Assembly: GCA_963801165.1 (NCBI GenBank)
Contig: CAWDDT010000004.1
Coordinates: 448,001-512,000 of the forward strand
Origin: an uncultured bacterium
GTDB taxonomy: Bacteria; Actinomycetota; Acidimicrobiia; Spongiisociales; UBA5794
Direction: 5' to 3'
Length of the DNA: 64,000 bases
Position numbers and translations under genes: made by a program. The notes under the pieces were generated by a model, which was not told the origin of the DNA, searched no databases, and saw nothing but the letters and a program-made list of their open reading frames with translations. Below are positions 27,523 through 53,965 of the stretch, in pieces; positions within the stretch are counted from its first letter, which is position 1; every line of letters begins with the position of its first letter.

Positions 27523-28529
27523 TCATCCGGCATTTGGATCGTCTCCATCCATCCTGCCGGCGCCAAGTCGTCCGGGCACGAAGGCCTCGTCAAGTTCCAC
27601 GATCGCTCCACCGCAATCAGCGGCCTCGAGAAGCTCCAAAGCGGCATTGAGAACGGCGGTCTGACGCAACCTGTCTCGTGGTGCGCCCATCGGTCGGCCC
27701 ATCGGGTGGCGGGTGATCACCGTCCGGGGTACCCCCATCGTCTGCGCCAAGTGGCGGAAGGACCGAACGAACACCGACACAGTGGGGATACCGCTGGCTT
27801 CGATTGCTCGCGCGACGTGTCCGACCGACACGTGGCATGCTGGTCAGACGGGTACCAGTAAGACCGCGTCGATCTGATCACGACCGAGGATGGCGGCCCA
27901 TTCATCTGCCGCCTTCTTGACCCGGCCCTGGGCGGCTGCTCCCGTGAAGGAATAGAGTGTTTCGGCAACGCTGCCGATCCTTCCCGCGGCCTCCGCTTCG
28001 AGAATACGATCGAGGGGAAACGTCACATTCGGATCGTGCCTGACGGATCGAACATCGTACCCACCATGACGTACGACCAGGTCCGCGGTCGGGGTGTCCG
28101 CGGAATTGCCGAAAGCGTTGGTGCTGCCCGCAGGAAGTCCGTAATCCGGTCCTCCGCTTCTTGCTGGGTCATCCCCTTGACTCCGAACGGTTCGGGATCA
28201 CGGCCCACGACGAAGTGCCCACTGGAAGTCAACAGACCGAGTTTCGACTCGGGGAGGGATTTGCGTAGGGGGGCGAACGGTCGATCATCGTAGCTCCAGC
28301 GTGGCTCGGTGCCGGGTCGCGGGGAGTAGGCGGCCACTTCGGTCTCGTACACCAGTTGCACGACGGGTCGAACGTCGCCCGTATCGTAAGCCGCTCCCAC
28401 CTCCCGGAATAGCCGCTGAATGAACTCCGTCGCGGCCTCGTCGGTCATCGACTTCAAGAACTTGAAGGAGAGGTCCGACCGGGATCCGTAGAAGAAGGAC
28501 TGTCGGAACTCTTCCAGCGATTCCGACAT
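27523..28529 (-). CDS. Glycine/sarcosine/betaine reductase selenoprotein B-like protein (Sec at 27844-27846; frameshift near 28095)
   Basis: LGLLTSSGH, HGGYD..DPNVTFPLD, DAVLLVPV-U-PACHVSVGHVARAIEASGIPTV; SECIS-like hairpin after UGA. Confidence 0.82.
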
Positions 28530-28534
28530 CAGGC

Positions 28535-29194
28535 TCAGGTTGCTTCCGTGAGCGCCTCAGCGCGGGCAGCGACTGCAGCGCTGGTGAGCTCCTCGATTTG
28601 GGACCACGCCTCATCGACAAGAAGCTGTTTGGGAGCAATCCAACTTCCACCGATTGCAGCTATTCCGGGGACTCGCCAGTAGGACGGTGCTCGCTGAGCA
28701 TTGATGCCGCCCGTAGGTATGAACTCGACGCCCAGGTGCCGATACGGACCGAGGAGAGCCTTGATCATGGATGGGCCGCCCATGGCTTCGGCAGGGAAAT
28801 ACTTGAGCAACTTGCACTCAGCCGAGAGCGCGGTCTCGATATCAGTGGGAGTGGCGACGCCCGGCCAGAACGGCATGCCTGCTTTGGTAGCGGTTGTCAC
28901 AACGGACCGATTGAAGCCGGGGGAAACACCGAATTGCGCACCGGCGGCCACGGCGGCGGTTGCCTGCTCGGGCGTGGTGATGGTTCCGGCTCCGACGAGC
29001 ATCTCCGGCAGATTGCTACGGATGGCTGCGATTGCCTCGGATGCGCCTGCCGTCCTGAAGGTGATCTCGATCACATCGAGCCCGCCGCGAAGCAACGCCC
29101 TGGCGAGAGGGAGCGCGAGGGACGGTGCCGGAAGTGCCACTACTGGCACCAGGCCGGCTCGGCGTATCCGCTGCTCTACTTCATCGTGCGACAC
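28535..29194 (-). CDS. eda: KDPG/KHG aldolase
   Basis: IEITFRT, GAGT, VSPG, LKYFPAE, FIPTGGI. Confidence 0.93.
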   Translation of the reverse strand: MSHDEVEQRIRRAGLVPVVALPAPSLALPLARALLRGGLDVIEITFRTAGASEAIAAIRSNLPEMLVGAGTITTPEQATAAVAAGAQFGVSPGFNRSVVTTATKAGMPFWPGVATPTDIETALSAECKLLKYFPAEAMGGPSMIKALLGPYRHLGVEFIPTGGINAQRAPSYWRVPGIAAIGGSWIAPKQLLVDEAWSQIEELTSAAVAARAEALTEAT

Positions 29195-30278
29195 GCGCTG
29201 CTCCTCCTCTCGCGACACGCTCAACGTCAGCGAGCGTGGCCATGGTTGTGTCACCTGGAGTTGTCATGGCCAGGGCGCCGTGGGCGGCCCCGTATTCCAC
29301 GCAATCCCGTGGAGTCATTCCCTCCTGGAGACCGTATATGAGGCCAGAGCAGAAGCTGTCGCCGCCGCCAACACGATCGTAGATCTCCAGCCCGGGACGG
29401 GGTGTGGCGCGGTGGAACGAGCCTTCTGCCCACAGGACGGCACCCCAGTCATTGTGGGAAGCTGATGGGGCTGCTCGCAGGGTCGTTGCGACGCACCGTA
29501 GATCCGGATAATCCGCTGTGACCCGTTTGATCATTGCCTCGAACGCCGTCGGATCGAGTGCGGCGAGATCCTCATCGACGCCCGTGACTTCATAACCCAG
29601 GGCGGCGGAGAAGTCCTCCTCGTTTCCGATCATGACATCGACATATGGCGCGAGAGTTCGATTCACCTCTTGAGCGCGGGCTTTGCCGCCGTGATCCTCC
29701 CATAGCGAGGCTCGGTAGTTGAGGTCGTACGAGACAACCGTCCCCGTCTCGCGCGCAGCCTGCATCGCCTCCAGGATGACTTCGGCGGTCTGCTCACCGA
29801 GCGCGGCCATGATGCCACCGGTATGCAGCCACCGGGCTCCCTCCTTCTCGAATATCTGGCGCCAGTCGATCTGGCCGGGGCGGAGTTGAGAGGTCGCGCT
29901 GTGGCCTCGATCGGAACAGCCTTTGGCCGCACGCACCCCGAAGCCACGCTCGACGAAGTTGAGTGCGTTGCGAGCGCGCTTTCCGATGCCGTCGAACGGA
30001 ACCCATTGCACGTGCCGCATGTCGACACCGCCTTGGAGAATGAGGTCCTCGAGCAACCTCCCAACTTCGTTGTCGACGATGGCGGTGACGAGGGTGGTGC
30101 GCTTTCCGAAGCAGCGTCGCAGCCCACGACTCACGTTGTATTCCCCGCCGCCTTCCCAAACTCGGAACTGACGTGCGACACACGTGCGAGTGTCACCGGG
30201 GTCGAGGCGGATCATTACCTCGCCGAGGGAAACGCAGTCCCATCTGCATTCTTTCGCCGGTCTGATTGGCAGAGACAT
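29181..30278 (-). CDS. kdgK: 2-keto-3-deoxygluconate kinase (PfkB family)
   Basis: SLGEVMIRLDPG, GGGEYNV, SYDLNYR, DRVGGGDSF. Confidence 0.88.
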   Translation of the reverse strand: MSLPIRPAKECRWDCVSLGEVMIRLDPGDTRTCVARQFRVWEGGGEYNVSRGLRRCFGKRTTLVTAIVDNEVGRLLEDLILQGGVDMRHVQWVPFDGIGKRARNALNFVERGFGVRAAKGCSDRGHSATSQLRPGQIDWRQIFEKEGARWLHTGGIMAALGEQTAEVILEAMQAARETGTVVSYDLNYRASLWEDHGGKARAQEVNRTLAPYVDVMIGNEEDFSAALGYEVTGVDEDLAALDPTAFEAMIKRVTADYPDLRCVATTLRAAPSASHNDWGAVLWAEGSFHRATPRPGLEIYDRVGGGDSFCSGLIYGLQEGMTPRDCVEYGAAHGALAMTTPGDTTMATLADVERVARGGAARVAR

Positions 30279-30315: not shown

Positions 30316-30909
30316 TCAGTACTCCGAATCCTCGGGCGACCGTTCTTCGGGAATCGCCGAGTAGGCAGGGAACTCCGGGTCGACGGGCTCGGTGATACCG
30401 AGTCCCCGGGTGACCCGGTTGATGTAGTTGAGGTGTGCGCACTGCGAATTCGCATCGAGGATGTCGAGATCGGTGAAGCCCTGGGCGCGCAGGCGTTCGA
30501 TGTCATCTTCCGTTATCGAGCCCGGGCTCCTGGTGAGCTTTGTCGTGTAGCGGACCAGTTCGCGGTCGGCGGGTGACATGTCGAGCTCGTCGGGGTGGCT
30601 GGCGAGCATGATGATCTGGTCGTTGTTGAATCCGGTCTCGCGCAGCTTGATCGTTGCCTGGCTCGCGCAGTAGTCGACGGAGTTCAAGGACGATGTGACG
30701 AAGCTGATCAGATTGCGCTGGTGGGGGGTCAGATTCGAGGGGCACCGCTCGCTGGCGGCGTAGAGATCAAGCCGGGTGCCGGCGAGGCGTGGATAGAGGG
30801 ACCCGAGTAGCGTCGTCTTTGTTGGTTTGCCGAGCGCGCGCGCCTGCCGGTCATAGACTGCCTTGAGCTCGTCGTCGGCATCTTCGTACGGAATCGTCTT
30901 GATCCACAT
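30316..30909 (-). CDS. AhpD/CMD-like peroxidase-related protein (degenerate CxxC)
   Basis: MWIKTIPYEDA, NSVDYC, KLTRSPGSI..LRAQGFTD..NYINR. Confidence 0.78.
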   Translation of the reverse strand: MWIKTIPYEDADDELKAVYDRQARALGKPTKTTLLGSLYPRLAGTRLDLYAASERCPSNLTPHQRNLISFVTSSLNSVDYCASQATIKLRETGFNNDQIIMLASHPDELDMSPADRELVRYTTKLTRSPGSITEDDIERLRAQGFTDLDILDANSQCAHLNYINRVTRGLGITEPVDPEFPAYSAIPEERSPEDSEY

Positions 30910-30964
30910 CGCATCCTCCGCTCGTCGGTTACCGCGGTCTATCTGAGCATGATGTCCCACTGGC

Positions 30965-30991
30965 TATCCTACCAGATGTCTGATAAGTTGC
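30965..30991 (-). promoter_or_regulatory. Promoter/operator with CAGACATCTG core (divergent region)
   Basis: Exact reverse complement of 35761-35787. Confidence 0.8.
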
Positions 30992-31029: not shown

Positions 31030-31966
31030 ATGACATTCCCGTGGGGGATCTGGTTCGAGCCGACGCAGCCGGTGCGGCGCATACTGGAATTGGCCCGCCT
31101 GGCGGAGGCCGAAGGAGCGTCCATATGCCTCGTCGCTGACGAGGGTACGACACGTGACGTCTATGTGACCATGACCGCGATCCTCATGGGGACAGAGCAA
31201 CTGACCGTCGGTCCCGGCATCACGAACCCGTTTTCTCGGCACCCGATTGCCACTGCCGCGGCGATCGCGACCCTTGCCGAGATGTTCCCGGGTCGCGTCT
31301 GGCACGGCCTTGGAGTGGGGGGTAGCCGGGTCATGGAGCCTTTGGAGCTCAGTCCTGAGAAGCCGTACACAGCGTTGCGAGACGCGGTGGACGTCAATGT
31401 TCGTCTCCTCGCCGGAGAGGCGGTCGGACCGGCCCGGCTCGACTGGTTCAAGGGGTCCGTACCGCTGGCGCTGGCCGGCCGGGGCAAGCGGACGCAAGCT
31501 CTAGCGGCAGAGCGGGGCGACTGGGTGATCCTCACCGCCAAACCCCTCGCCGAACTGCCTCGAGAGGCTCAGCGCATCCGTGCCGCGGGAAATGCAAAGA
31601 TCGCCTGGTCGGCCTACATGGCCTTCTCGGAGGAGGAGCGCAGCCTGGTTCTCGCGCATTTCTCCTACATGGCCGTCGATGCGCCTCCCGACATTCGCGC
31701 CGCCGCTGGTCTCGATGATGTGCGCCTGCAAGAAGGTTCGCTCCGCGATGCTTGCGGGTGACTTCGAGTCGGCGATCCGCCTGCTGCCGCTGGCACTCGT
31801 GGATGCCTACGCCTTGGCAGGGTCGCCAGAAGAATGCGCGGTCAAGATTCGTGCCTTGCGCGGATCATTCGATTTGTTCATGCTGCCGATCCCTCATGAC
31901 GCCACCGCGGAGGAGCACATCGCGACCACGGCCCAAGTCCTCCGCGCGGCAGCGGTAGACCCGTAA
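31030..31966 (+). CDS. LLM class oxidoreductase (frameshift near 31725)
   Basis: VGPGITNPFSRHP..ATLAEMFPGRVWHGLGVG; C-terminus ALAGSPEEC in another frame. Confidence 0.85.
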
Positions 31967-32020
31967 TGAGATCGCCCGAATCGTCGTCTCGCACCTGCTG
32001 TATGCGAAGGAGTTGTTGAA

Positions 32021-33055
32021 ATGTTCAAAGGCTTTGGAATCTCGATATCAAATGAAGACCACGTCGATACCACGTTGGGCATGGTCCAACGTGCCGACCG
32101 GTTGGGCTTCGATGAGGTTTCGCTCCCGGAGAGCCGCCACTTTCGATCGGTGTTCAGCGTTGCAGCAGCCGGTCTCGCCACGACCGATCAGATCACAGTC
32201 CGTATAGGGGTCGCCAATCCGGTTACCCGCCATCCGGCAATTCTCGCAATGGAGGCGGGGACTCTGGCCGAGATCGGTCCAGGGAGGATTCGGTTTGGTA
32301 TCGGCGCCGCGGCGTGGACCATGCGCAAGTTCGGGTACGTCTCCGATAGCTGGAAGCCGTATACCAACACCGTCGAGTCTGCGAAGGCGATTCGCCAACT
32401 CGTGCGTGGCGAGCCCCTCGGATTCACTCCCAAGACGTTTCTCGCGACGCCCGCAACCACCCTCGACTTCACGCCACCGCAGCCGATCCCCGTTGACCTG
32501 GGTGCCGTCAACGAGAGGATGATGGAAGCAGTAGGCGAGGTCGGCGACGGAGTACAGCTGGGTGCGTTGGCGACCCCGGGCTACGTGGCGTGGGCCCGGG
32601 AGCGGATCGCCGTTGGCGCGGCGCGCTCCGGTCGTGATCCTTCCGGCATGCGGATTGCGTCCAACGTGCTGACTTCGGTGGGCCGCGATCGTCGCGCCGC
32701 CCGCCTCGCGGTGCGTGAAGTCCTTGCGTACTATCTCCACCGGGTGGAGTCCGTCATCATCGAGAAGAGCGGTGATGTGGACCAGGATCAACTAGCCAGG
32801 ATCGGGGCCACGGTTAGAGAAGATGGTGTCGAAGCGGGGGCCAAGCTGGTGAACGATGACCTGATCGACGGCTTCGCCGTTGCCGGCACTATCGACGACG
32901 TTGTCGAAGGCTTCGGCCGCTACATCGCAGCAGGTCTCGAGGTACCCCTCGCGTGGTACACGTTTGGACCCGATCCCGATTGGGCGATCGACGTCCTCGC
33001 CAGCGAGGTCCGACCCGCACTTCTCGGTCTCGTGAAGGGGGGTTTGCATGACTGA
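32021..33055 (+). CDS. LLM class oxidoreductase (Mer-like, possibly F420-dependent)
   Basis: IGVANPVTRHPAILAMEAGTL..GRIRFGIGA, FAVAGT. Confidence 0.9.
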   Translation: MFKGFGISISNEDHVDTTLGMVQRADRLGFDEVSLPESRHFRSVFSVAAAGLATTDQITVRIGVANPVTRHPAILAMEAGTLAEIGPGRIRFGIGAAAWTMRKFGYVSDSWKPYTNTVESAKAIRQLVRGEPLGFTPKTFLATPATTLDFTPPQPIPVDLGAVNERMMEAVGEVGDGVQLGALATPGYVAWARERIAVGAARSGRDPSGMRIASNVLTSVGRDRRAARLAVREVLAYYLHRVESVIIEKSGDVDQDQLARIGATVREDGVEAGAKLVNDDLIDGFAVAGTIDDVVEGFGRYIAAGLEVPLAWYTFGPDPDWAIDVLASEVRPALLGLVKGGLHD

Positions 33056-34193
33056 TCGATGGAGGCGCAACTGGCGTGATCTAGCCAGCGAGGTTATCGA
33101 CCTGGGCCTTTGCACCGGCTGCTCGGGGTGTGTGGTTGCTTGTCCGCAAGGCGTCCTGCACCTGGATCGGGAGACGTGGATACCCGGTCTCGACTCGGAT
33201 GCGTGGCATGAAGACCAGGACTCGTATTGCCGTTTCGGGGATCGGGGGTGCACGCTCTGCGCTCGTGCTTGCCCGCGTCTCGGCGCCTGGGAGACCGAAG
33301 CGGATTTGGCACGGTGGTCGAGAACGCGCCGGGTCGACGAGGTGCTTGGCGTCTACCGGCGGATTCTGATGGTCGACGCGACCGACCGTGCGGTCGCGGC
33401 CGCCGGTCAGGACGGCGGACTTGGCACGGCAATGCTGCTCTACGCCATCGAGAAGGGCTACATCGATGGTGCTCTGATCAGTCAATACGACGAGAAGATG
33501 AACACCCGACCGGGCATCGCCCGGACTCGCGAGGAATTGCTCGCCTGCGCCGGCTCTCGCTACACGTACTCGCCCAACCTGCTCGCCATCAAGGAGGCAG
33601 ACCGTGCAATGAGGATCGGTCTGATCAGTGTTGGGTGCCAGGTTTCTGTTCCCGCCATCGCCAAGAGCAGGGGCGCCAACAAGCTTGCCAAGCGCTTCGA
33701 GCTTGTTGTCGGGCTGCTCTGTTCGAAGACGTTTGCCGACCGCATCTACGAGGATCTGCTGGAGAACCAGTACGGCATTGCGCGGCACCAGATCACGAAG
33801 GTCAACATCAAGGGCATACTCCAGGTTTGGTACGAAGGCAACGACGCCGAGTCGTCCTATGTGGAGGTGCCTCTCTCGGAGTGCAGGGAGTACTCTCGGC
33901 TCGGCTGCTCCCACTGTCCAGATTTCGCGGCCCAGCACGCTGACGTATCGCTCGGCGGGATCGGAAGGGAGCCCGGTCGTACGCTGACGATCATCCGGAG
34001 TGAGCTCGGTGATGAGATCATCACGGCCATGCAGCGTGACGGTCTCGTTGTTGCCTCTGACGCAATGGATGATGACCCTGGTGCAGTTGCCCTGATTGAG
34101 AAGCTTGCCGCCCGGCAACGCAAGCGATGGCCGGGAGCCTCTTCGTCGTTGGAACTGGTCGACCCAGCGCCGGTAATGGTGTCCTCTACTTGA
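33048..34193 (+). CDS. Coenzyme F420 hydrogenase/dehydrogenase beta-subunit (FrhB/FdhB) family with N-terminal ferredoxin
   Basis: CTGCSGCVVACP, CTLCARACP, GQDGG, GSRY, GCQ, GLLC, CSHCPDF. Confidence 0.9.
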   Translation: MTDRWRRNWRDLASEVIDLGLCTGCSGCVVACPQGVLHLDRETWIPGLDSDAWHEDQDSYCRFGDRGCTLCARACPRLGAWETEADLARWSRTRRVDEVLGVYRRILMVDATDRAVAAAGQDGGLGTAMLLYAIEKGYIDGALISQYDEKMNTRPGIARTREELLACAGSRYTYSPNLLAIKEADRAMRIGLISVGCQVSVPAIAKSRGANKLAKRFELVVGLLCSKTFADRIYEDLLENQYGIARHQITKVNIKGILQVWYEGNDAESSYVEVPLSECREYSRLGCSHCPDFAAQHADVSLGGIGREPGRTLTIIRSELGDEIITAMQRDGLVVASDAMDDDPGAVALIEKLAARQRKRWPGASSSLELVDPAPVMVSST

Positions 34194-34230
34194 GGTTTGG
34201 TTTGTTCCCAATCAACAGGAGTGTTGCGAA

Positions 34231-34794
34231 ATGGCGTACATACGGCAGATCGAGCCCGCCGATGCGACTGGAGAGTTGAGGGCGTTTTACGATGCTCTCT
34301 TCGATACCGTCGGCAGCATCCCCAATATTGTGAAGCTTTCCAGCCTCAAGCCGTCCGCGGCATCCGCCGCGCAGGATCTCTATCAGAGTGTCCTCTACCA
34401 CGACTCGGGGCTGGCGATGGAGGAGAAGGAGATGGTGGCGACCGCCGTGTCCGTCATCAATGGCTGCGTCTACTGCTACGAGCATCATGGTGGGGCGCTC
34501 GCCAGACTCACGGATGATCCCGATCTCGCCGCGCAGGTGATTTCGGATTTTCGGTCGGCGCGGATCGGCCCGCGGGCGATGTCTTTGCTCGAGTTCGCCG
34601 ACAAGCTCAGCCGCACGCCGGGTGCGATGACCGAGGCTGACATCGACGCGCTGCGTCCCCTCGGCTTGTCCGACGAGGATATTCTGGACCTGGTCCAGTT
34701 GGTTTCCTACTTCGCCTACACCAGTCGCCTTGCGGTCGCGCTGGGGGTTGACCCGGAGATTCCGAAGGAGCCACCTGGTCCGGATCCCACGTGA
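34231..34794 (+). CDS. AhpD-like peroxidase-related enzyme
   Basis: EMVATAVSVINGCVYCYEHH. Confidence 0.88.
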   Translation: MAYIRQIEPADATGELRAFYDALFDTVGSIPNIVKLSSLKPSAASAAQDLYQSVLYHDSGLAMEEKEMVATAVSVINGCVYCYEHHGGALARLTDDPDLAAQVISDFRSARIGPRAMSLLEFADKLSRTPGAMTEADIDALRPLGLSDEDILDLVQLVSYFAYTSRLAVALGVDPEIPKEPPGPDPT

Positions 34795-34819: not shown

Positions 34820-34835
34820 TGTCAGACATCTGACA
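34820..34835. promoter_or_regulatory. Operator TGTCAGACATCTGACA upstream of the GntR gene
   Basis: 16-bp near-perfect palindrome with CAGACATCTG core. Confidence 0.8.
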
Positions 34836-34841
34836 TGAATT

Positions 34842-35693
34842 GTGGTCTCCAGCTGCTGGCTACTGTCTGTCGGTTCCGGAGCGGTGGTTCACGCCAGCCC
34901 TAGTACGTGCGAGGTCGCCGATGGCAGAAGTACACGGACAGAAGGGACTCCGGGCGGACCGCGTCCTCTGTACCTGCAGCTGGTGGATGCGCTGCTTGAC
35001 TGGATCGTAGAAGAAGGGAAGGGGCCGGGGGACCGAGTACCGGGGGAGCCGGAGCTCGCGCGCCGATTCAAGGTCGGTCGATCGACGGTGCGTGAGGCCC
35101 TGGTGTATCTGGAATACGAAGGAATCGTAAATCGCTCCCAGGGCTTCCATACCACCCTGACTTCGCTGGCGCGGCGCCCGGCGTTGGGTTTGGAGGTGTT
35201 GGAACCAGTTGAGGCTCTCGCGACGCGGCAGGGATGGGAGTGCAAGACACGAGACCTGGTCTTGATGCAGAGTACTGCTGATGAAGTCCGGGCCGACAAG
35301 CTTCATGTCGAGCCCGGTTCCGATGTGTCGATCATCCGAAGAACGAAGTTCACCCAGGATGGCCCGTTTGCCTTGATGGAGAGCGTTGTCCCCAATGCAG
35401 TCAAGTCGTACGACATGCTGCGGAGCGAGTTCCAGGATTCCATAACGGTACTACTCGACGATGTCGCCACCCTTCGGTTTGCGGCGGCCGAGATCACCGC
35501 GGCGACCGCCGAGGGTCACGTCGCAGAGGCACTGGCCCTAGAGGTCGGGTCCCCGGTGCTGCTGCTCGAGGAGCTGTTCTATGGGGATGGTGAGGACCCT
35601 CTTGCCTGGAATCTCAACTACTTCGTACCGGGAACGATCCGGTTCGAGTTGCTGCGCAAGGTTCCGAGCGTAAAGTTGTCGGACCGCCGCTGA
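34842..35693 (+). CDS. GntR/HutC family regulator (UTRA domain); start uncertain
   Basis: PLYLQL..RVPGEPELARRFKVGRSTVREAL; UTRA-like C-terminus. Confidence 0.9.
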   Translation: MVSSCWLLSVGSGAVVHASPSTCEVADGRSTRTEGTPGGPRPLYLQLVDALLDWIVEEGKGPGDRVPGEPELARRFKVGRSTVREALVYLEYEGIVNRSQGFHTTLTSLARRPALGLEVLEPVEALATRQGWECKTRDLVLMQSTADEVRADKLHVEPGSDVSIIRRTKFTQDGPFALMESVVPNAVKSYDMLRSEFQDSITVLLDDVATLRFAAAEITAATAEGHVAEALALEVGSPVLLLEELFYGDGEDPLAWNLNYFVPGTIRFELLRKVPSVKLSDRR

Positions 35694-35757: not shown

Positions 35758-35787
35758 CTGGCAACTTATCAGACATCTGGTAGGATA
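35758..35787 (+). promoter_or_regulatory. Sigma70-like promoter (CTGGCA-N17-TAGGAT) with operator in the spacer
   Basis: gcaacttatcagacatctggtaggata. Confidence 0.7.
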
Positions 35788-43440: not shown

Positions 43441-43571
43441 CGCTGAGGTCTGCGATGCAAGGATCTCGGACCGCGGAGACTCGCGCCGATCTCCGAGAAC
43501 TGGGTTGACGAAGACCCCGGGCCGCTTGGCTTGGCCGGGCAGTTTCCCGCAAGCTGCGCCCGTCCCGGCGT

Positions 43572-43625
43572 CCCCGTGGTTCGGATCGGCCCCGTGTTCC
43601 GGACCGGCCCCGTGTTCCGGACCGG
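43572..43625. repeat. 3 x 18-bp tandem repeat ccccgtgttccggaccgg
   Basis: Two exact copies and one diverged copy, intergenic. Confidence 0.85.
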
Positions 43626-43655
43626 CACGAGCCCATCGGTATGCACCCTCGGTAG

Positions 43656-43682
43656 GCAACTTCTCAGACATCTGATAGGCTA
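43656..43682 (+). promoter_or_regulatory. Promoter/operator with CAGACATCTG core and TAGGCT -10
   Basis: gcaacttctcagacatctgataggcta, 24/27 identical to 35761-35787. Confidence 0.8.
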
Positions 43683-43739
43683 GGGGAAGTTCGCAACTAT
43701 GGTCATCCAACCTCGGCGAAACCACACTGGAGGTACCTC

Positions 43740-45185: not shown

Positions 45186-45212
45186 CGAACCCTACGAGTA
45201 GTGGAGGTAAGG

Positions 45213-45860: not shown

Positions 45861-45964
45861 CGAGGCGAGGTGAGCCAGAACCCTGAGGCCCGTCAGGATC
45901 AACACCGACAATCACCCCCTGGTCAACCGGCACCATCCACCCTGGCCGGACTGGAGCAGAAGCT

Positions 45965-47094
45965 ATGAACACAATCGAACGTGCTGTTGTGCTCGGCAGT
46001 GGCGCCGGCGCTCTCACCATCGCTGCCGAGCTCGGATTGGGAGGCGCCGCGGTCACCCTCGCCGACCTCCCGCAATTCGGTGATCGGCTCGAACCGGTCG
46101 AGGCGGCCGGCGGTGTCAAGATCGCGTATCGCGACCTACCCGAGCTTGGCGTGCAACATGCCCCGATCGCGGCCACTTCAGTTGACGTCAAAGGCGCGAT
46201 TGCCGGTTCACCGCTGGTTATCGTTTCGGTTCCATCATTCGGTCACAGGCCGTTCGCCGAGCTCCTCGCACCGACTCTCGAGGATGGACAGACGTTGATG
46301 TGGGTTGGCGAGGGCGGTGGCGCCTTCGCAACAGTTGCCGCGCTGCGAAAGATCGGAAGTCGTCCGGCGATCCTGCTTGCTGAAACGAACACACTGCCTT
46401 ACAACGGTTCGTTGGTCAATGGACCGGGCAGCGTGACTACGGTTCACAAGATCGGGGAACTTACGTGGCCGGACTTCCCGCTCGCCTCACCCAAGAGGTC
46501 GCACACACGGCGTCGCAGATCTGGCCCTGGTCCGCGGCTGCGACCAATGCCTGGGAAACGGTGCTGATCAACTACAACGCCATTGACCACGTTGCGACTG
46601 TGGTGGCGAATCTGGGCAGCCTGCAGAGTCGGTCCGATACGATGTTGCTGTGGGGCGAGGGAGCCTCGGTTGGGGTAGCCAACTTGATTCATGCAGTCGA
46701 CGGTGACTACCTGGCGCTGCGCGCCGCCTTGGACCTCCCGACCGAATTGCGATATCACGACTTTCTCATCCGCCAGGGTGTCGCCGCCAAGAAGGCGGAG
46801 ACGCTCTACGAGACTATCCACGCCAGCGATCTGGCCAAGGCCCGGTTCCAGTGCGGTCCCGAAGCGCTCGAGCATCGCTATATCGCAGAAGACGTGCCCT
46901 ACTCGTTGGTGCTTGCTTCATCGATCGCCGCCGAACTGGACGTCGCGGTACCGACAATCGATGGTCTGATTGCGATAGTGTCGGCGGCCGCCGGAAAGGA
47001 CTACCGAGCCAGCGGGCGCACCTTGGCAGACTGGGGATTGGAGGGTGTTGGACGCGACGGCCTGCTTCGCGCAGCCGTCGATGGGTGGTGGTAG
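45965..47094 (+). CDS. NAD/NADP octopine/nopaline (opine) dehydrogenase family (frameshift near 46455)
   Basis: VLGSGAGA, ETNTLPY, NYNAIDH, HRYIAEDVPYSL, GRTLADWGL. Confidence 0.85.
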
Positions 47095-47158
47095 CGCCGC
47101 CAGATTGCCCAGATGCAGACGGACCGGATAGGAACGGCAGAGGACCGGAGTTAGATCT

Positions 47159-49393
47159 ATGACAACCGAGAGTGTCACGACACCAACAAGAACTCGTTAC
47201 GTCGGCCGTTCGGTGCCGTCGCGGAGCGCGGATGTTGTGGTTACCGGGGAGCTGGAGTATCTAACCGACATCTCCCTTCCCGGCATGCTCTATGGCAGAG
47301 TCATTCGTGCCAAGGTAGCCCACGGTCGTCTTCTGGGACTCGAGACGGAGGCGGCCCGGCAAGTACCCGGTGTGGTTGCGGTGCTGACCGCCGCAGACGT
47401 TCCCAACAACGTCTCGGGAGCGATTGTGGTTGACCAGCCGGTCCTGGTCGACGGCCTGATCCGCCATTCGGCGATGCCGTCGCGCTCGTTGCGGCCGATA
47501 CACCTGCAGCGGCGGAGGCTGCCGCTGCCGCGATCGAACTCCACGTAAGGCCATCACCCCCATCACCGACCCCGTTCAGGCGTTGCAGGCGTCGGCACCG
47601 TCGCTCCATGAAAACGGGAATCTTCTGCTCGAGCTGAATCACCAACGGGGTGACGTCGAGGCAGCGCTGGCGGCGGCGGCAGTGGTCGTCGTGCGCACGT
47701 TCCAGACCCAGGTCCAGGAGCACGTATGCCTCGAGCCGGGTGGCGGCGTCGGCGCGGACCAGAACGGTCAATTCACTATCTGGGTGGGTACCCAACTTCC
47801 CGGTAATGCGCAGCATGAGGTGGCCAGAGCACTACAGGTCGAGATCGAAGACGTGCGCATAATCTCGACCCCTATCGGCGGCTCGTTTGGGAGCAAGAGC
47901 GAGGGCCCATTTCCCATCTTTCTCGCCCTGCTGGCCAAGGCGACGGGGCGGCCGGTGCGCATCGTCCTCACACGTGAAGAAGTGATGGCCGTAGGCGCAA
48001 AACGCCACCCATTCCGGGTGCATTTCGCCTGGGACTCAATGAGGAAGGGGCAATCGTCGTGCTCGACACAGACGCCGTCGTCGATGCGGGGCCCTATGCG
48101 GGCTTCACTCCTGCGGTGCTGGGTGTGGCCGCCGAGGCTTCCTCGGGGACCTATTCCATGCCGAACGCCCGTTTCCGTGGTCGCGCTGTCTACACGAACA
48201 ACAGCAACGGCGGGGCGTTCCGTGGCTACGGTGTCCCTCAGATGACGTTCCCCCTGGAGAGCTCTCTCCTCGAGGCGGCGGAACGGCTGGGGCTCGACCC
48301 GGCGGAGGTCAGAAGACGCAACATGCTTCACCCGGGTGATGCGCACGCCCTCTATGGTCACACGATCGGGCCGAGCTTCCGCGGCGCGGAGGCACTCGAC
48401 GCTATCGTCGCTCATCCGTGGTGGCAAGACCGGGTCGCATGGAAGGAACAGGCCGCCGATCCGTGGAGGCGCGGTACCGGAATTGCGGCCGCACTGAAAG
48501 GCTGCGGATACGGCAGCGGCAAGGGAGACCGTGCCGGAGCACGACTTCAGATCGGTGTCGACGGGTCGATCACGATCTGGGCCGGCCCGAACCACTCGGG
48601 TCAGTTTGTCGAGACCGCATACGCCCAGGTTGCCGCCGATGCTCTGGGTCGGGACTATGACGAGGTCACCGTCGTCGTCGGGGATACGGAGTTGGTGCCA
48701 GAGTCGGGTGCCTGTGCGGCGTCCCGGAGCCTCTACGTGGGGGGCGGGGCCGTGTTGCGAGTCTGCGAGGAACTGAAAGCCCGGATCCGCGCCGGGGGGA
48801 TCGAAGGCCCGATCGACTGGCGAGAAGCTGGGGCGCTGACTGGGGGCGGCCGGTCAAGCGCTCGTCGAGGTCTATCACGACGCTCCAGACGTGACCGAAC
48901 TGGGCGAGATGGATCTCGAGGATGTGAAGCGTCTCAACCCGCATCGTGTCTTCTCCAGCGCGGTCCAGGTGGCGCGGTTGAAGTCAATCGATTCACCGGA
49001 CAAGTGGAGGTTCGCGGCATCGTCTGTGCCGTCGACTGCGGCGTAGCCGTCAATCCTGCAGGTGTGGTCGGCCAGACCGAAGGAGCGATGCTCCAGGGTA
49101 TGGGCTGGGCTCTGATGGAGGACTTCAAGCTCGAAGGCGGCGTGCCTCAGACCGGCTCGTTGGAGACATACTTGATTCCCACCGCAGGTGACGCGCCTTA
49201 TCTGGAGACGATCATCATCGAGGGAGGCGAGGAGACCGGACCGTTTGGCGCCAAGGGCATCGCAGAGGTTGTCCTGGTACCGACGGCTCCAGCGATCACG
49301 GCCGCCATTCGCGATGCTGTCGGTGTGACGGTAGACCGGCTACCGGCGAGCCCGGAGCGGGTCTACCGGCTCATGGAAGGGTTGGAATTGTGA
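47159..49393 (+). CDS. Xanthine dehydrogenase family molybdopterin-binding subunit (multiple frameshifts)
   Basis: IGGSFGSK, AFRGYGVPQ, GQTEGAMLQGMG, GPFGAKGIAE. Confidence 0.88.
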
Positions 49394-49827
49394 AAGTCAA
49401 CGGACGCGACGTCACGCCAACCGACCCGGCGCTGCGACTGCTGGACTACCTGCGCGACACGCTCGAGCTCACCGGGGCCAAGGAGGGATGCGGCATGGGT
49501 GAGTGTGGAGCGTGCACCGTCCTCGTGGATGGGATCCCCGTGTGCTCGTGCCTGGTCCTTGTCGGCCAGGTTGCCGACGTGGCAGTGGTGACGGTCGAGG
49601 GCCTGGCGGACGCCGAGGGTCTTCACCCCGTCCAGCAGGCGATCGTCGACCATCTCGCCAGCCAATGTGGGTACTGCACGCCCGGTGTCGTCGTGTCTGT
49701 TGCTGCGTTGCTCGCTCGCGGGCCGTGGCCGGATGATGAGGCGATGCGGGAGGCGCTTGCGGGCAATCTCTGCCGCTGCACCGGCTACCAGGCGATCTTT
49801 CGTGCGATCGCCGCGTTGGGAGAGTGA
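49390..49827 (+). CDS. (2Fe-2S) subunit, CoxS/XdhC type
   Basis: GCGMGECGACT, QCGYCTPG, NLCRCTGY. Confidence 0.95.
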   Translation: MKVNGRDVTPTDPALRLLDYLRDTLELTGAKEGCGMGECGACTVLVDGIPVCSCLVLVGQVADVAVVTVEGLADAEGLHPVQQAIVDHLASQCGYCTPGVVVSVAALLARGPWPDDEAMREALAGNLCRCTGYQAIFRAIAALGE

Positions 49828-49829
49828 CC

Positions 49830-50645
49830 ATGGCAGAACTTCTCACCCCAAAGTCGTTGGCAGAGCTGAGGGCGGTCGCCGGAAGTGGACGGCTGATCGC
49901 CGGAGGGACGGATGTCATCGTTCAGATGCGGGCAGGTCGCCGCTTCACTCGCCTGATTGACATCAGCAACATCGGAGACCTCCCTCCTGCCGTCAAGGCG
50001 GATACCGGTCAGATCGAGCTGTCAGCGATGGCTCCGATCACTGCGGTCGTGGGCGAGTTGGGTGGCCAGTTGCCGGGGATCGCGGCGGCGGCGCGCGTCT
50101 TTGCCTCACTCCAGATCCGCAATCGGGCAACGATCGGCGGCAATCTGGCGAACGTGTCACCGGCAGGCGACATGATCCCACCTCTCGTTGCCGCTCACGC
50201 TCAAGTCGTGGCCGACGGTCCAGCGGGCCCGCACGCTATCGCGGTGGAAGATCTCGCAACCGGGCCGGGGCACACCGTGCTGAATCCAGATGAGTGGTTG
50301 TCGATCATTCGCCTTTCTCCTCCTCAGGGCGAGGAGGGCTTCATCAAGCTGGGCGGCCGAACCGCGACGGCGATATCCATTGTGAGCCTGGCGTGGCGCT
50401 GGCGGAGAACGGACGATGGATCGCTCGCCGGTGTGAGCCTTGCAGTGGGTGCGGTGGCTCCTACGGTCATCCGGGCACGACAGGCGGAGTCGGCGCTCGA
50501 AGGCAAGCAGCCAACGCCTGAGGTAGTAGCCGACGCGATCGAGGCTCTCAGGGCTGAGATCTCTCCGATCGATGACGTGCGCGCGAGCGCATCGTATCGC
50601 CGCCAGGTGGCGGGCGGCCTACTGCGACAGGCGCTCTCGAGATGA
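49830..50645 (+). CDS. FAD-binding subunit, CoxM type
   Basis: IAGGTD, QIRNRATIGGN, DDVRASASYR. Confidence 0.93.
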   Translation: MAELLTPKSLAELRAVAGSGRLIAGGTDVIVQMRAGRRFTRLIDISNIGDLPPAVKADTGQIELSAMAPITAVVGELGGQLPGIAAAARVFASLQIRNRATIGGNLANVSPAGDMIPPLVAAHAQVVADGPAGPHAIAVEDLATGPGHTVLNPDEWLSIIRLSPPQGEEGFIKLGGRTATAISIVSLAWRWRRTDDGSLAGVSLAVGAVAPTVIRARQAESALEGKQPTPEVVADAIEALRAEISPIDDVRASASYRRQVAGGLLRQALSR

Positions 50646-51677
50646 TCGCGATGAACCCGACGGCAACCGGGCGCCGCGGGATTCCGGCGGTGGCCCTGGT
50701 TGCCCTGGCCGCTGCGCTCTGGGGCACGGATGGTGTTTTCCGATTCTGGCTGGCCGTCGAGATGCCCGCGACCGTGGTTGTGCTTCTCGAACATGTCGTC
50801 CTCGTACTCATGACTCTCCCGTTCTTGATTCGCGTAGGGCCGGCGTTGCGGCGGCTGAACGCTGGGGATTGGGTTTCCGTGATCCTGGTTGGCGCGGGCG
50901 CGGTCGGTACTCGGCACCGTGCTGTTCACAATGGCTTTCTCCTACGGAGACCCGAATACACCTCTGCTTCTGCAGAAACTACAGCCCGCGTTTGCCGTGT
51001 TGGCTGCCGCCCTCATCCTCGGCGAACGGCTGACCAGCCACTACTGGCGCTATTTTGCGTTCGGGATTGGGGGCGCCTATCTGATCAGCTTCCCCGACCT
51101 CACTCCGAGTTCGGTTGACCAGGCCGCACCGGCCCTGCTGGCACTCGGAGCCGCAGGACTCTGGGGCCTGGGGACTGTCCTGGGGCGCCGCCTCACCGAG
51201 AAGGTGCCTTTCGCCCAACTCACCGCACTGCGGTTCGGCATCGGTATGCCCGTGGCTGCGATTGCAGTGGCGCTTCGCGGAGAGTGGCCTCGCCTCACGG
51301 AGGTCACGCCCGCAGAGATCTGGGGCGTCGCGGGCTTGGCATTGGTTCCTGGTTTCCTCGCCATCATGCTCTACTACCGCGGTCTCGGTGGGACCCCTGC
51401 CTCGACTGCAACGCTCGCCGAGTTGGCTTTTCCGGTCAGCGCTCTTCTCCTCAATTGGCTGGTTCTCGGCAGTACCCTCGAGGTCGGTCAGGTGGTGGGG
51501 GTGGTGGTCCTCGTTGCGACGATCACGGCAATGGGTTTGGCCCAAGCGAGATCACCGATCCGGCTGGGAGTGCGGGTGAAGAGAATGGCGGCGACAGAGG
51601 GCGAGCTGATCGGGGCTCGCGGATCTGGCCAAGTGTCCGACGAGTTGTTGAGAACACGAGATTCGATGGAGGCGTAG
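50642..51677 (+). CDS. DMT/EamA transporter (frameshift near 50900)
   Basis: AAALWGTDG, LLQKLQP, ATLAELAFP. Confidence 0.82.
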
Positions 51678-51683
51678 CACACC

Positions 51684-52670
51684 ATGAAGGTTGGAACAGC
51701 AGTTTGGCTCGATCGTCCGGCGCGAGACGCGGCACGCATAGCCGCGGCCGCGGAGCAGGCGGGGTTCGACGCCATGTGGGTGCCGGATCACTACTTCCTA
51801 CGCGACTCGTTTGTTGCTCTGGCGTTGGCGGCGGAGGCAACGTCCACCATCAAGCTTGGCACGGCAGTAGCGAGCCCGCTGCTGCGTCATCCTGCGCAGC
51901 TCGCCGGTTCCTTCGGAACCCTCCAAGAGGTATCCGAGGGCAGGGTGATTGTCGGGATCGGTCCCGGGGGAGCGGAGTTCGGTCGGCAACTCGGTCTGCC
52001 GATCAGACGACCGCTCAGCTTGATCGAGGAATCGGTCGAGATCATTCGCGGCCTCGGGAATGGCCCAATCAGCATGGCGGGGGATCATTTCGAAGTCTCA
52101 GGTGCCGAGCTCGGTTGGCGATGCCAACCGATGCCGGTGTATCTCGCAGCCAGGGGGCCCAAGATGCTGGAGCTCTCCGGCCGGATCGCAGATGGGATCT
52201 TCGCCCACGGGCTTGCTCCGAGCTGCGTGGAGTTCATTCAGGACCGGGTTGCCGCGGGGGAGGAAAGCGCCGGCCGCAAAGGCGCTTGCGAAATCAACTT
52301 CATGTTTGTCTATGAATACGACACGGATCGAGAGGCGGCGATCGATCGGCTGCGATCGAGTGTCACCTACATGGTGGCCGGCAACTACCCCGAGGAGCTG
52401 ATTCCGATATTCGGTCTGGACCCAGAAGAGGTTCTTCCGATTCGGGAGGTCGTTGCCAGAGGAGATCTCGATCGCGCTAACCAGATGATGACTCCGGAGA
52501 TGATCGAGGCATTCAACGTTGGGGGGCCGGAATCTGCTCTCATCGACCGGCTCCGCTTGTTGGCGGACCACGGTGTCGAAAGCGTGACGCTCCAGTTGGG
52601 TGGAGACACAGTCGAGGAGGCCATTGCCCGAACCGAACGCGTTGGACGAGCGATTGCGACGTTGGTATGA
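51684..52670 (+). CDS. LLM class oxidoreductase (Mer-like)
   Basis: WVPDHYFLRD, LGTAVASPLLRHP, YLAARGPKMLELSGRIADG. Confidence 0.92.
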   Translation: MKVGTAVWLDRPARDAARIAAAAEQAGFDAMWVPDHYFLRDSFVALALAAEATSTIKLGTAVASPLLRHPAQLAGSFGTLQEVSEGRVIVGIGPGGAEFGRQLGLPIRRPLSLIEESVEIIRGLGNGPISMAGDHFEVSGAELGWRCQPMPVYLAARGPKMLELSGRIADGIFAHGLAPSCVEFIQDRVAAGEESAGRKGACEINFMFVYEYDTDREAAIDRLRSSVTYMVAGNYPEELIPIFGLDPEEVLPIREVVARGDLDRANQMMTPEMIEAFNVGGPESALIDRLRLLADHGVESVTLQLGGDTVEEAIARTERVGRAIATLV

Positions 52671-53965
52671 CGGATCTTCAGATCAAAGGCGGAACAGTCA
52701 TAACGATGGACGACGAGCGCTCTATCGTGGAAGCGGACGTCTATGTCGACGCCGGGCGGATCGTCACGATCGGTGGTCCGCAACGTCCTGCCCGCAGGAC
52801 AATCGACGCTACCGGGATGGTCGTCATTCCGGGGCTCATCAACCTTCACGATCACTTGCGCGACCTTACCCCAGGGATCCGGATCGGTGAGGGCCTCAAG
52901 ATCGACGAATTGTTGCGGGCCTACTGGCGGCTCACCGAAGCCATGGGTGTTGTTGAGTACCGGGTCGGTGCAATGCTCGGCGCCGCTCGCCTCGTCAGGG
53001 CCGGTGTCACCTCGGTGGTCGATCACGTGTATCCGTTCCATGTTCCCGGACTGGCGGAATCGACGGTGGCAGGTTATGAGGCCGTCGGCATTCGATGGTT
53101 CATGGCCCGCGGCATAATGACCCAACCGTACGAGCCGATTTGCGAAACCGAGGCCGAAGCCTTCCGGGGAATCGACGAGCTCTCCGAGATTGTGCCCACC
53201 GAGCGCCTGTTCGTAGCACCGGTGTCGCTGCGACAGGCACCACCAGAGCTCTATGCAGAGGCTCGGCGGTTTGCTGACCAGCGGGGCCTGCGTCTCTACA
53301 CCCACATCGCCGAGACACCCGACGAGGTGACCAAGACGAGGGAGGAGTATGGTGCCCGCCCCGTCGAGTTACTCCACAAGCTCGGATTCGCCGGCGAGGA
53401 CACCGTCTTGGTCCATTGCGTTCAGCTGTCTGCGCAAGAGATGCGTCTTCTGGCTGCGAGCGGCAGCCACGTGGTTCACTGCCCCACGAACCACATGAAG
53501 CTTGCCAAAGGAGTGACCGCCGTCCCGAAGCTACTCGAGCGTGGCATCAACGTGGGGATGGGCGTCGACACAATGGGTGACATCATCGCCGAGATGCATC
53601 AGGAGGTATTGATCCAGAGCTTGGCCACGGGAGATCCGGGTGCGATTGACCCCGTAACGGCGCTGGAGATGGCTACCCGAAACGGCGCTGCCGCTTTGGG
53701 ACTGGCGGATGAGCTGGGATCCATCGAGGAGGGCAAGCGGGCGGATTTGGTATGCGTCGATCTTCGCGCCATCCATCTGCGGCCAGTCCTCGATCCGATC
53801 TGGACGCTGGTGAATCGCGCCCAGGGACACGATGTCGCGCATGTCGTTATCGATGGCCGCCTTGTCGTACGCGCCGGCAAGCTGACCATGGTTGACGAGC
53901 CGTCACTCATGGAAGAGGTAGATACCGTCGCATCCGCGTACCTCCGCAGGACCGGCATGGCGTGA
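52667..53965 (+). CDS. Amidohydrolase (MTA/SAH deaminase or AtzA/SsnA-like)
   Basis: PGLINLHDH, THIAET, VHCV, HCPTNHMKL, GVD. Confidence 0.9.
   Translation: MTDLQIKGGTVITMDDERSIVEADVYVDAGRIVTIGGPQRPARRTIDATGMVVIPGLINLHDHLRDLTPGIRIGEGLKIDELLRAYWRLTEAMGVVEYRVGAMLGAARLVRAGVTSVVDHVYPFHVPGLAESTVAGYEAVGIRWFMARGIMTQPYEPICETEAEAFRGIDELSEIVPTERLFVAPVSLRQAPPELYAEARRFADQRGLRLYTHIAETPDEVTKTREEYGARPVELLHKLGFAGEDTVLVHCVQLSAQEMRLLAASGSHVVHCPTNHMKLAKGVTAVPKLLERGINVGMGVDTMGDIIAEMHQEVLIQSLATGDPGAIDPVTALEMATRNGAAALGLADELGSIEEGKRADLVCVDLRAIHLRPVLDPIWTLVNRAQGHDVAHVVIDGRLVVRAGKLTMVDEPSLMEEVDTVASAYLRRTGMA

Follow-up and report, generated by a model that had tools for sequence, protein, structure and literature searches.

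Here we describe, in an uncultured member of the Acidimicrobiia (Actinomycetota) from soil and salt marsh, a gene cluster that appears to import and break down a nitrogen-containing ring compound under the control of a single repressor. The cluster lies in a 64,000-nucleotide stretch (hereafter the window; G000:C4:448001-512000) of a 4.55-Mb genome in 13 contigs with 64% G+C, where 24 genes in tight arrays make up five transcription units between positions 27523 and 53965. We consider it highly probable that these genes form one conserved, co-regulated catabolic regulon. With somewhat less assurance we favor reading it as a HutC/GntR regulon of four operators, five units and 24 genes that imports and degrades an amino-substituted N-heterocycle, and we give a heterocycle as the substrate class an approximately even chance. 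Most probably, the ring is purine-, pteridine- or pyrimidine-like and bears an acid or N-carboxyalkyl side chain. All of the parts come from known families and follow ordinary regulatory logic; what seems new, going by the literature searched, is their conserved combination.

The five units are tied together by a shared palindrome. A 27–28-nt element, identical or 89% alike between copies, is found at 30964-30991 (on the other strand), 35760-35787 and 43655-43682, and its 16-bp palindromic core occurs once more at 34820-34835, ahead of the regulator gene. These give four candidate operators: O1 (30970-30985) in a divergent promoter region, where the 28-nt element is oriented to the minus-strand operon; O2 (34820-34835) directly upstream of the regulator gene; O3 (35767-35782) upstream of the ABC transporter operon, overlapping a TAGGAT −10-like hexamer; and O4 (43662-43677) upstream of the ligase operon. 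A degenerate operator pattern matched four times in the window and not at all in 100 shuffles, and the rest of the 4.55-Mb genome holds no site at two or fewer mismatches and three sites at three mismatches. The operator lies between −35-like and TAGGAT or TAGGCT −10-like hexamers, and at three sites the palindrome ends in or beside the TAGGAT/TAGGCT hexamer, an overlap that would suit a repressor blocking the −10 region.

The regulator (34842-35693, plus strand) belongs to the HutC subfamily of GntR proteins, with a winged-helix domain (PF00392, 51 bits, cut-off 27) and a C-terminal UTRA domain (PF07702, 59.9 bits, cut-off 23.8), both over their Pfam cut-offs. In having these two domains and a palindromic candidate operator ahead of its own gene and of the target operons, the system resembles other HutC-subfamily regulons; it differs in that the operator is specific to this locus and that no named equivalog cut-off was reached. 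In the closest relatives, a genome designated UBA5794 (handles G031 and G317) and the metagenome contig L055, the palindrome with one mismatch lies upstream of both the ligase gene and LLM4, a luciferase-like monooxygenase (LLM) gene, and UBA5794 keeps it in the divergent region between AhpD1 and LLM1 as well. Unlike these two, the window has no operator ahead of LLM4, and no such site was found in the more distant cluster variants. The first-pass annotation, made from the letters alone, had taken the genes for one co-regulated unit, a view that is strengthened by an operator unique to the locus and kept at equivalent promoters of the two closest relatives. A scan with an E. coli-type consensus found no promoter at the two unit borders to which it was applied, and a terminator scan gave three weak terminator-like sites past the last gene.

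Gene families were assigned with Pfam on 93 open reading frames (ORFs) of the 24–56 kb part of the window, supplemented by NCBIfam profile scores against their cut-offs; a filter based on GC3 by frame was too noisy for calling genes here. Unit 1 (30960 to 27523, minus strand) encodes AhpD-like protein 1, a KdgK-type kinase, Eda and a PrdB/GrdB-type selenoprotein. Unit 2 (31030 to 34794, plus strand, as are all that follow) encodes the Mer-like LLM1 and LLM2, an FrhB/FpoF-like protein and AhpD-like protein 2, and unit 3 (34842-35693) consists of the regulator. Unit 4 (35854 to about 43443) carries the ABC ATPase, permease and binding protein, a cytosine-deaminase-like (CDA-like) amidohydrolase, a sulfatase and LLM3, while unit 5 (about 43710 to 53965) carries the ligase, an RraA-like protein, an opine dehydrogenase, the L, S and M subunits of an XDH-family enzyme, an EamA transporter, LLM4 and an 8-oxoguanine-deaminase-like amidohydrolase. 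Every gene family named in the first-pass annotation was recovered at its place by Pfam and NCBIfam; its estimate of about 22 genes sharing one operator was right as to the operator, and the count is now 24.

The same genes keep company elsewhere. A core set, consisting of the ThiY-like ABC importer, the two deaminase-type amidohydrolases, XDH L/S/M, an F420-type LLM, the opine dehydrogenase, the ligase and the RraA-like aldolase, is found again, differently ordered, in two other Acidimicrobiia genomes and in several contigs from metagenomes, so that the co-occurrence on which the first-pass annotation hinged is borne out in rearranged form. In UBA5794 the cluster sits on two contig ends with all genes intact and 58–82% protein identity. 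The first end carries on one strand a 2-oxoacid:ferredoxin oxidoreductase, a different FrhB-like gene (32% identity), Eda, KdgK and AhpD1 and continues past the operator, on the other strand, with LLM1, LLM2, AhpD2 and GntR; the second runs from the binding protein through the last amidohydrolase, with an extra short-chain dehydrogenase gene and the sulfatase as a single 799-aa ORF. This dehydrogenase gene (L016:14248-15333, minus strand), located between those for the sulfatase and LLM3, is missing from the window; genes like it are present in L061 and L062. G339, from another family of the same order, holds LLM1, AhpD1, LLM2, the ligase, an amidohydrolase, LLM4, XDH M-S-L and three opine dehydrogenases in tandem.

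When metagenomes were scanned with the opine dehydrogenase of UBA5794 as query, ten loci came back. XDH subunits stand beside the opine dehydrogenase in seven of these (L055, L056, L057, L058, L060, L062 and L064, with the M subunit of L058 at the contig edge), as they do in both genomes found, and were not found in L059 (4.6 kb), L061 (18 kb) or L063 (2.1 kb, 31% identity). Among the ten, LLM4-like genes occur in five, the ligase and RraA in four each, and the second amidohydrolase and the CDA-like enzyme in three each; ABC genes are present in L060 and L062 and, by Pfam, in L058. In L055 the selenoprotein is encoded as a single ORF together with Eda and KdgK, convergent on the main operon, and in L064 a 72% identical FrhB ortholog adjoins the opine dehydrogenase and XDH genes. 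The set is rare among sequenced relatives: opine dehydrogenase orthologs (E 1e-60 or better) were found in two of 400 other genomes of the class, namely UBA5794 and G339, and none was found in the same-genus genome G007 (95% complete). A search of genome contigs with the binding protein gave three loci, UBA5794 alone being syntenic, and a DNA search of 30 relatives gave only short, weak matches (E 8.6e-7 or worse) and hence no synteny.

The core, then, stays together while its order changes, and the sulfatase, PrdB-type selenoprotein, FrhB-like protein and KdgK/Eda are accessory modules. The first-pass annotation had described a pathway defined by LLM, molybdenum, selenium and sulfatase chemistry. 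Its regulon and its co-occurrence stand, but that set is not a fixed one, with the sulfatase and the selenoprotein each shared with one relative only.

Eight genes of the cluster are split across reading frames in the assembly: those for the selenoprotein, LLM1, the sulfatase (in its C-terminus), LLM3, the ligase, the opine dehydrogenase, XDH-L and the EamA transporter. Frameshift-tolerant alignment of the window DNA to intact orthologs located 23 frameshifts, 19 of which are 1-nt deletions, an error type to be expected in long-read consensus sequences. Twenty fall at 41685-48978, with three in the sulfatase (at about 41685, 41831 and 42019), six in LLM3, five in the ligase, one in the opine dehydrogenase (near 46454) and five in XDH-L; the selenoprotein (near 28100), LLM1 (near 31729) and EamA (near 50903) genes have one each. 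Two extra calls, one at the extreme N-terminus of the sulfatase and one at that of the opine dehydrogenase, probably reflect start artefacts and were left uncounted.

Taken at face value, 23 frameshifts in eight genes could mean that the frame breaks are real and that the cluster is a decaying pseudogene array encoding a dead pathway. Public short-read contigs speak against this. Contigs from two studies, one with three soil-metagenome runs and the other with a salt-marsh run, were mapped on 41500-49500, giving 67 pieces, 34 of them at least 99% alike. At no fewer than 11 of the 20 predicted sites these contigs carry a 1-nt insertion or deletion, each at most 13 nt from the prediction (42692, 42767, 43245, 43402, 43993, 44251, 44266, 47465, 47547, 48837 and 48976); at three more (41686, 43069 and 44329) they end loose, and the records across 46454 have one gap each. 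The best-matching run may be the source sample, which limits its independence, and the salt-marsh run comes from a separate study. In addition, alignment to the intact orthologs revealed no nonsense codons in the eight split genes, nearly all of the changes are 1-nt deletions, and five of the eight keep 74–82% protein identity. Because near-identical short-read contigs hold the missing bases, the frame breaks are assembly errors and not decay, and we rejected the pseudogene explanation as extremely unlikely. An ORF-coverage scan for local decay did not discriminate in DNA of such high GC content. In other parts of the window three long genes are unbroken ORFs of 874–962 aa, and the errors are therefore concentrated locally (20 in 7.3 kb). 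This could be the mark of an accessory island that is carried by part of the population and was poorly polished. Such errors also reach beyond the cluster, as a UbiD gene at C4:434140-434728 (L099:10029-11211) is split over two frames, probably by another single-base assembly error.

The importer bears on the likely substrate. It comprises an ATPase of the taurine/nitrate/sulfonate type (35854-36609), a permease (36606-37535), both recognized by Pfam and NCBIfam, and an NMT1/THI5-like substrate-binding protein (37583-38788; PF09084, 22.3 bits, cut-off 20.5). The binding protein had no match among PDB sequences at E up to 1. Its AlphaFold2 model (pLDDT 88.8) matched best, in Foldseek, the formylaminopyrimidine binder ThiY (3ix1), the thiamin binder 4nmy and Thi5, with TauA/SsuA next. 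The modeled fold thus likens the transporter to ThiXYZ/ThiY-type aminopyrimidine importers, from which the binding protein differs in sharing only 13–19% sequence identity with them.

The same operon encodes a sulfatase (40215-42482; PF00884, 204.7 bits) with a Cys-type C-x-P-x-R motif (CAPTR) and a long C-terminal extension. A sulfatase maturase is present in the genome as a radical-SAM anSME protein (TIGR03942, 481 bits, cut-off 349); no FGE (PF03781) was found there. Together with an ATPase and a permease that score best on taurine/sulfonate transporter models, and weak LLM matches to alkanesulfonate monooxygenase models, this enzyme could be seen as part of an organosulfur-scavenging system in which a TauT-type importer, the arylsulfatase and SsuD-like LLMs free sulfur from sulfate esters or sulfonates. 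However, the LLMs score far better on F420 families, the model of the binding protein resembles ThiY/Thi5 more closely than TauA/SsuA, most related clusters have no sulfatase, and such a system would leave the XDH-type enzyme, the deaminases, the opine dehydrogenase and the ligase without a role. We therefore judge sulfur scavenging to be very unlikely.

The two amidohydrolases agree with uptake of an amino-substituted heterocycle. Among solved structures, the best relatives of the first (38731-40077) are cytosine deaminase and AtzC, and those of the second, a TRZ/ATZ-like protein (52667-53965), are 8-oxoguanine deaminase and AtzB (7ww2, E 3.3e-56). In an alignment, the CDA-like enzyme keeps the metal ligands and catalytic residues of E. 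coli CodA, which we take to be the HxH motif, H214, E217, H246 and D313; the likeness to CodA ends at two changed recognition residues, considered below, and at equivalog cut-offs that were missed (NF005759, 226.5 against 403, for the CDA-like enzyme). Both the ThiY/Thi5-like binding-protein model and these deaminase-type relatives lend some support to the N-heterocycle proposed in the first-pass annotation.

The XDH-family enzyme consists of a molybdenum subunit (L, 47159-49393), a [2Fe-2S] subunit (S, 49390-49827) and an FAD subunit (M, 49824-50645), with PF01315, PF02738, PF20256, PF01799, PF00941 and PF03450 all over their cut-offs. The catalytic glutamate is kept in XDH-L, where ...GAKGIAEV aligns with ...GASGVGEL of 1sij_A, ending at residue 870; the alignment was made on the UBA5794 XDH-L ortholog, which is 82% identical over 739 aligned codons, and the residue is presumably Glu869 of Desulfovibrio gigas aldehyde oxidoreductase. 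The best solved relative of the molybdenum subunit is the alpha subunit of 4-hydroxybenzoyl-CoA reductase (1rm6_A, E 1.2e-83), though the subunit stays below the equivalog cut-offs for pucD (501 vs 783.65), 4hydrxCoA_A (413.3 vs 994.55) and XdhA (398.1 vs 780).

The gene that opens the XDH operon encodes an AMP-forming adenylating enzyme or acyl-CoA ligase (43710-45185), a generic ANL enzyme that stays below the cut-offs of the NCBIfam acyl-CoA ligases. A three-subunit XDH-family enzyme encoded with an acid-activating ligase is also the arrangement of 4-hydroxybenzoyl-CoA reductase, and the furoate pathway follows the same logic with furoyl-CoA synthetase and its dehydrogenase. The present cluster differs in the missed 4-hydroxybenzoyl-CoA reductase cut-off and in its deaminases, LLMs and opine dehydrogenase, which those pathways are not known to have. 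In the same operon are an RraA-like or HMG-CHA-type aldolase (45201-45860; PF03737, 110.1 bits), an EamA/DMT transporter recognized by Pfam (50642-51677) and an opine-dehydrogenase-family enzyme (45965-47094), in which an Octopine_DH helical domain (PF02317, 100.6 bits, cut-off 30) accompanies an N-terminal NAD(P) fold. This last protein matches N-(1-D-carboxyethyl)-L-norvaline dehydrogenase (1bg6, E 6.8e-26) over residues 18-382.

PF00296 was found in all four LLMs: LLM1 (31030-31966; intact in the G339 and UBA5794 orthologs), LLM2 (32021-33055; 173.4 bits), LLM3 (42355-43443) and LLM4 (51684-52670; 191 bits). The UBA5794 ortholog of LLM3 exceeds the cut-off of an F420-type LLM family (TIGR03560, 254.5 vs 231.4), while LLM1, LLM2 and LLM4 remain below cut-offs and match Mer models best. 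With CofH at 479.3 bits against a cut-off of 374.1 and CofD just under its own (247.7 vs 257.45), the organism is predicted to be able to make F420. The FrhB/FpoF-like protein (33048-34193) shows PF04432, PF04422 and Fer4 families, including an N-terminal domain for two [4Fe-4S] clusters, and the neighbors of its homologs in other genomes are varied. In UBA5794 (L078:1864-5845, in G031:C5), Eda is followed by an FrhB-like gene (469 aa), an alpha/gamma subunit of a 2-oxoacid:ferredoxin oxidoreductase and then a 275-aa ORF.

Unit 1 ends in the gene for a selenoprotein of about 330 aa (27523-28529, minus strand), which carries PF07355 (45 bits, cut-off 22) and an in-frame TGA at 27846-27844 in the UxxC motif VPV-U-PAC-H. 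The assembly error near 28100 divides it into two ORFs. The L055 ortholog, 76% identical, is a single ORF of 329 aa with selenocysteine (U) at residue 229 in the motif VPV-U-PVCH, and the TGA falls in one and the same alignment column in the copy of the window, in L055 and L069, and in 13 genome-locus rows from the order. Database entries are mostly 228 aa long and end at the TGA; a few are cysteine forms of 328–338 aa. About 10 nt past the UGA lies a SECIS-like hairpin with a seven-pair stem and a loop, GGUCG, kept in all three sequences, with two compensatory pair changes, although the z-scores of its fold (−0.25 to −0.99) did not reach significance. The genome has a SelB that exceeds its cut-off, and the organism is thus predicted to be able to insert selenocysteine.

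At its N-terminus the selenoprotein carries an additional domain of about 90 residues. Its model (pLDDT 85.1) found no Foldseek match in the PDB at E 0.001 or better, nor did its sequence match a PDB entry; a wider structure search gave generic Rossmann folds of the LacI/binding-protein and short-chain dehydrogenase types (best Z 9.3, rmsd 3.3, 142 residues). The region differs from D-proline/glycine reductase complexes, as Pfam found no PrdA, GrdE or GrdA partner gene in it and the PrdB equivalog was not reached (TIGR04483, 111.6 against 300). To our knowledge, PrdB-type selenoproteins are plentiful in aerobic microbes and have been without an assigned function since 2005. In the outline given by an ocean-metagenome survey, a 'proline reductase PrdB' family (pfam07355, UxxC) is among the most abundant selenoproteins (PMC2398784). 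Our protein is like that marine family, as outlined there, in PF07355, in a UxxC motif with an in-frame TGA and in having cysteine-containing homologs, and differs from it in the extra N-terminal domain and in its place behind KdgK-Eda under a predicted catabolic repressor (PMC2398784).

The remaining genes of unit 1 are Eda, a KDPG/KHG aldolase (28535-29254, minus strand; PF01081, 197.8 bits; TIGR01182, 224.8, cut-off 156), a KdgK-type PfkB sugar-acid kinase (29181-30278, minus strand; PF00294, below the cut-offs of NCBIfam KDG kinase families) and AhpD-like/CMD protein 1 (30316-30960, minus strand), which has PF02627 and no CxxC motif (TIGR01926, 80.9 bits, cut-off 81.8). AhpD-like protein 2 in unit 2 (34231-34794) carries a CxxC motif (CVYC) and scores 149.8 bits on the same model. 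The place behind Eda is taken by the selenoprotein in the window and in L055 and by the FrhB-like and oxidoreductase genes in UBA5794. In another locus, L080 (G017:C8:65760-69495), a selenoprotein homolog lies directly behind and in frame with a POR/DUF6537-type oxidoreductase gene, the open frame being 1570 aa with the TGA read through. This is a second hint linking the selenoprotein family to 2-oxoacid:ferredoxin oxidoreductases. Elsewhere, the neighbors are heterogeneous in 17 other selenoprotein loci, with no conserved partner, and a phylum-wide sample has homologs in two of 300 other genomes, G669 being one of them.

The nearest described pathway is the one that breaks down pterin and lumazine. 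Cluster I of Cupriavidus sp. LA-1, described in 2025, encodes in its published outline a pterin deaminase, a three-subunit XOR-family lumazine dehydrogenase, a CobW-like GTPase, an Amidohydro_2 isomerase and a UbiD-type decarboxylase, and the same outline gives the pterin deaminase of Actinomycetota as CDA-like (PMC12391406). The present region resembles that cluster in its three-subunit XOR-family enzyme and may resemble it in the deaminase, for which its CDA-like enzyme is a candidate; set against the same outline, it has in addition LLMs, an opine dehydrogenase, a ligase, aldolases and an ABC importer (PMC12391406). It has neither the Amidohydro_2 isomerase DHLI (no PF04909 among the 93 ORFs of 24–56 kb) nor a CobW-like GTPase nor a UbiD decarboxylase (no PF01977), the only PF01977 matches of the genome being those at C4:434140-434728.

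A lumazine-type set does exist in this genome, beyond the window, at a place about 41 kb upstream of the cluster (G000:C4:426654-435757; L099:2654-11757). Its order is GntR(FCD), XOR FAD subunit, 2Fe-2S subunit, CobW-like, an 813-aa XOR molybdenum subunit, Amidohydro_2 (G000:C4:432167-433198), UbiX and UbiD, with a PNPOx-like gene; no deaminase was found among 19 ORFs scanned in 20 kb around it. Since this set is separate, the cluster is not that pathway. The cluster might still deliver substituted pterins to the lumazine route, but the distribution of the isomerase across the class, given below, does not support an obligatory link. A literature search found no paper holding this gene combination. 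The first-pass annotation had not recognized the combination as a described pathway, and the literature searched and the missing lumazine-pathway features agree with it. On these grounds we regard the locus as a probable orphan N-heterocycle catabolic regulon.

How might such a regulon work? We envisage that the repressor would be released by the substrate or an intermediate and that the ThiY-like importer would take up an amino-substituted heterocycle. In this strain, the Cys-type sulfatase would remove a sulfate ester in the cytoplasm. The two amidohydrolases would then remove exocyclic amino groups hydrolytically, the molybdenum enzyme would hydroxylate next to a ring nitrogen, perhaps on a CoA-activated acid, and the LLMs would reduce the ring or an imine with F420H2. 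The FrhB-like iron-sulfur flavoprotein may recharge F420; in UBA5794, where Eda is followed by another FrhB-like gene and a 2-oxoacid:ferredoxin oxidoreductase, this arrangement suggests that the cost of recharging is borne by pyruvate oxidation. The side chain would be released and turned into pyruvate by the opine dehydrogenase, the RraA-like aldolase and KdgK/Eda. Finally, the PrdB-type selenoprotein and the CxxC AhpD-like protein might serve as an accessory module for thiol/selenol redox or reductive C–N cleavage. A more specific version, an F420- and molybdenum-dependent route for conjugated pteridines or 2-amino-4-oxo heterocycles in which the selenoprotein performs the reductive C–N cleavage or selenol/thiol redox, we hold to be distinctly unlikely.

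A number of observations weigh against these proposals. No single known compound explains all of the enzymes. The NCBIfam equivalog cut-offs were missed throughout for the XDH-type enzyme, the deaminases and PrdB, and the CDA-like enzyme has Leu and Asn in place of the cytosine-recognition residues of CodA (presumably Gln156 and Asp314). Co-induction of the five units is a prediction from the shared operator. As for the pteridine version, an ortholog of the DHLI-type isomerase occurs in five of 400 other genomes of the class, UBA5794 and G339 not among them. Module content also varies between loci: within related clusters the sulfatase is shared with UBA5794 alone, the selenoprotein with L055 alone and the FrhB ortholog with L064 alone. 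Single FrhB-like homologs at about 50% identity are present in 225 of 400 other genomes of the class, a tally that includes G409 and G236, and seven such loci examined had no other cluster genes save a 35% ABC-ATPase-like match in L048. Of 200 other genomes of the order, 55 have homologs of the selenoprotein, almost always with a single in-frame TGA, and KdgK/Eda lay within 1.5 kb of the selenoprotein in none of 20 loci examined.

Such variation would fit a mosaic scavenging island, in which one repressor governs unrelated modules for sulfate esters, heterocycles, KDG (kinase and aldolase) and redox chemistry and there is no linear pathway. Modules that are gained and lost independently between genomes, selenoprotein and FrhB-like families that are mostly solitary elsewhere, and the additional LLM4 operator of UBA5794 and L055 would all be expected of such an island. 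Against it, every unit is served by the same operator, of which the genome has no other close copy, and the core genes have stayed linked through rearrangements in at least six loci. Moreover, the genome has a second KdgK (60% identity) adjoining an Eda-like gene (33%) at G000:C13:50085-51868, and the copy in the regulon therefore looks dedicated. On balance, we think a mosaic unlikely, if worth keeping in view.

The ligase and the opine dehydrogenase raise a different doubt. The best solved relatives of the ligase are adenylation domains of nonribosomal peptide synthetases, and metallophore biosynthesis also uses opine dehydrogenases and EamA exporters. The locus might then be a biosynthetic cluster that makes an opine-type metallophore or another small metabolite by means of the adenylating enzyme and the opine-dehydrogenase-family enzyme and exports it through EamA. 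Yet Pfam found no nicotianamine-synthase-like or carrier-protein gene in the region, which does contain features typical of catabolic operons: an importer that depends on a binding protein, a pair of hydrolytic deaminases, a hydroxylase of the XDH type, KdgK/Eda and a UTRA repressor. A biosynthetic role is accordingly highly improbable in our view, and a catabolic regulon for an N-heterocycle remains the reading we prefer.

Several other features were noted around the cluster. Upstream lie an ECF sigma-factor gene (24866-25426, minus strand) and, between it and the selenoprotein gene, two plus-strand ORFs (26001-26885 and 26887-27495) with no Pfam or NCBIfam match. Between LLM3 and operator O4, an 18-nt unit, GGCCCCGTGTTCCGGACC, stands in two tandem copies (43588-43623). 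Immediately downstream, Pfam identified a pair of PIN-domain toxin and Phd/YefM antitoxin genes (54751-55644, minus strand), and past this pair a PNP_UDP_1 nucleoside phosphorylase (55696-56490, minus strand).

For those who annotate metagenome-assembled genomes from long reads automatically, the cluster holds a caution, as its apparent pseudogenes are assembly errors in what may be an accessory island. Natural N-heterocycle catabolism, whether of pteridines, modified purines or aminopyrimidines, is poorly mapped, especially in uncultured soil and marsh Actinomycetota. With its clear operator, dedicated binding protein and conserved core of enzymes, the locus is a well-delimited regulon whose parts lend themselves to expression and screening. 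Three poorly understood families meet in it as well. It brings together three groups of proteins, namely F420-type LLMs, FrhB-like proteins of non-methanogens and the PrdB-type selenoproteins that are common in aerobic communities. If the pteridine route were true, it would add an upstream branch to the lumazine-to-xanthine pathway encoded about 41 kb away and would give the PrdB-type selenoprotein family its first physiological context, within a catabolic operon of an aerobe.

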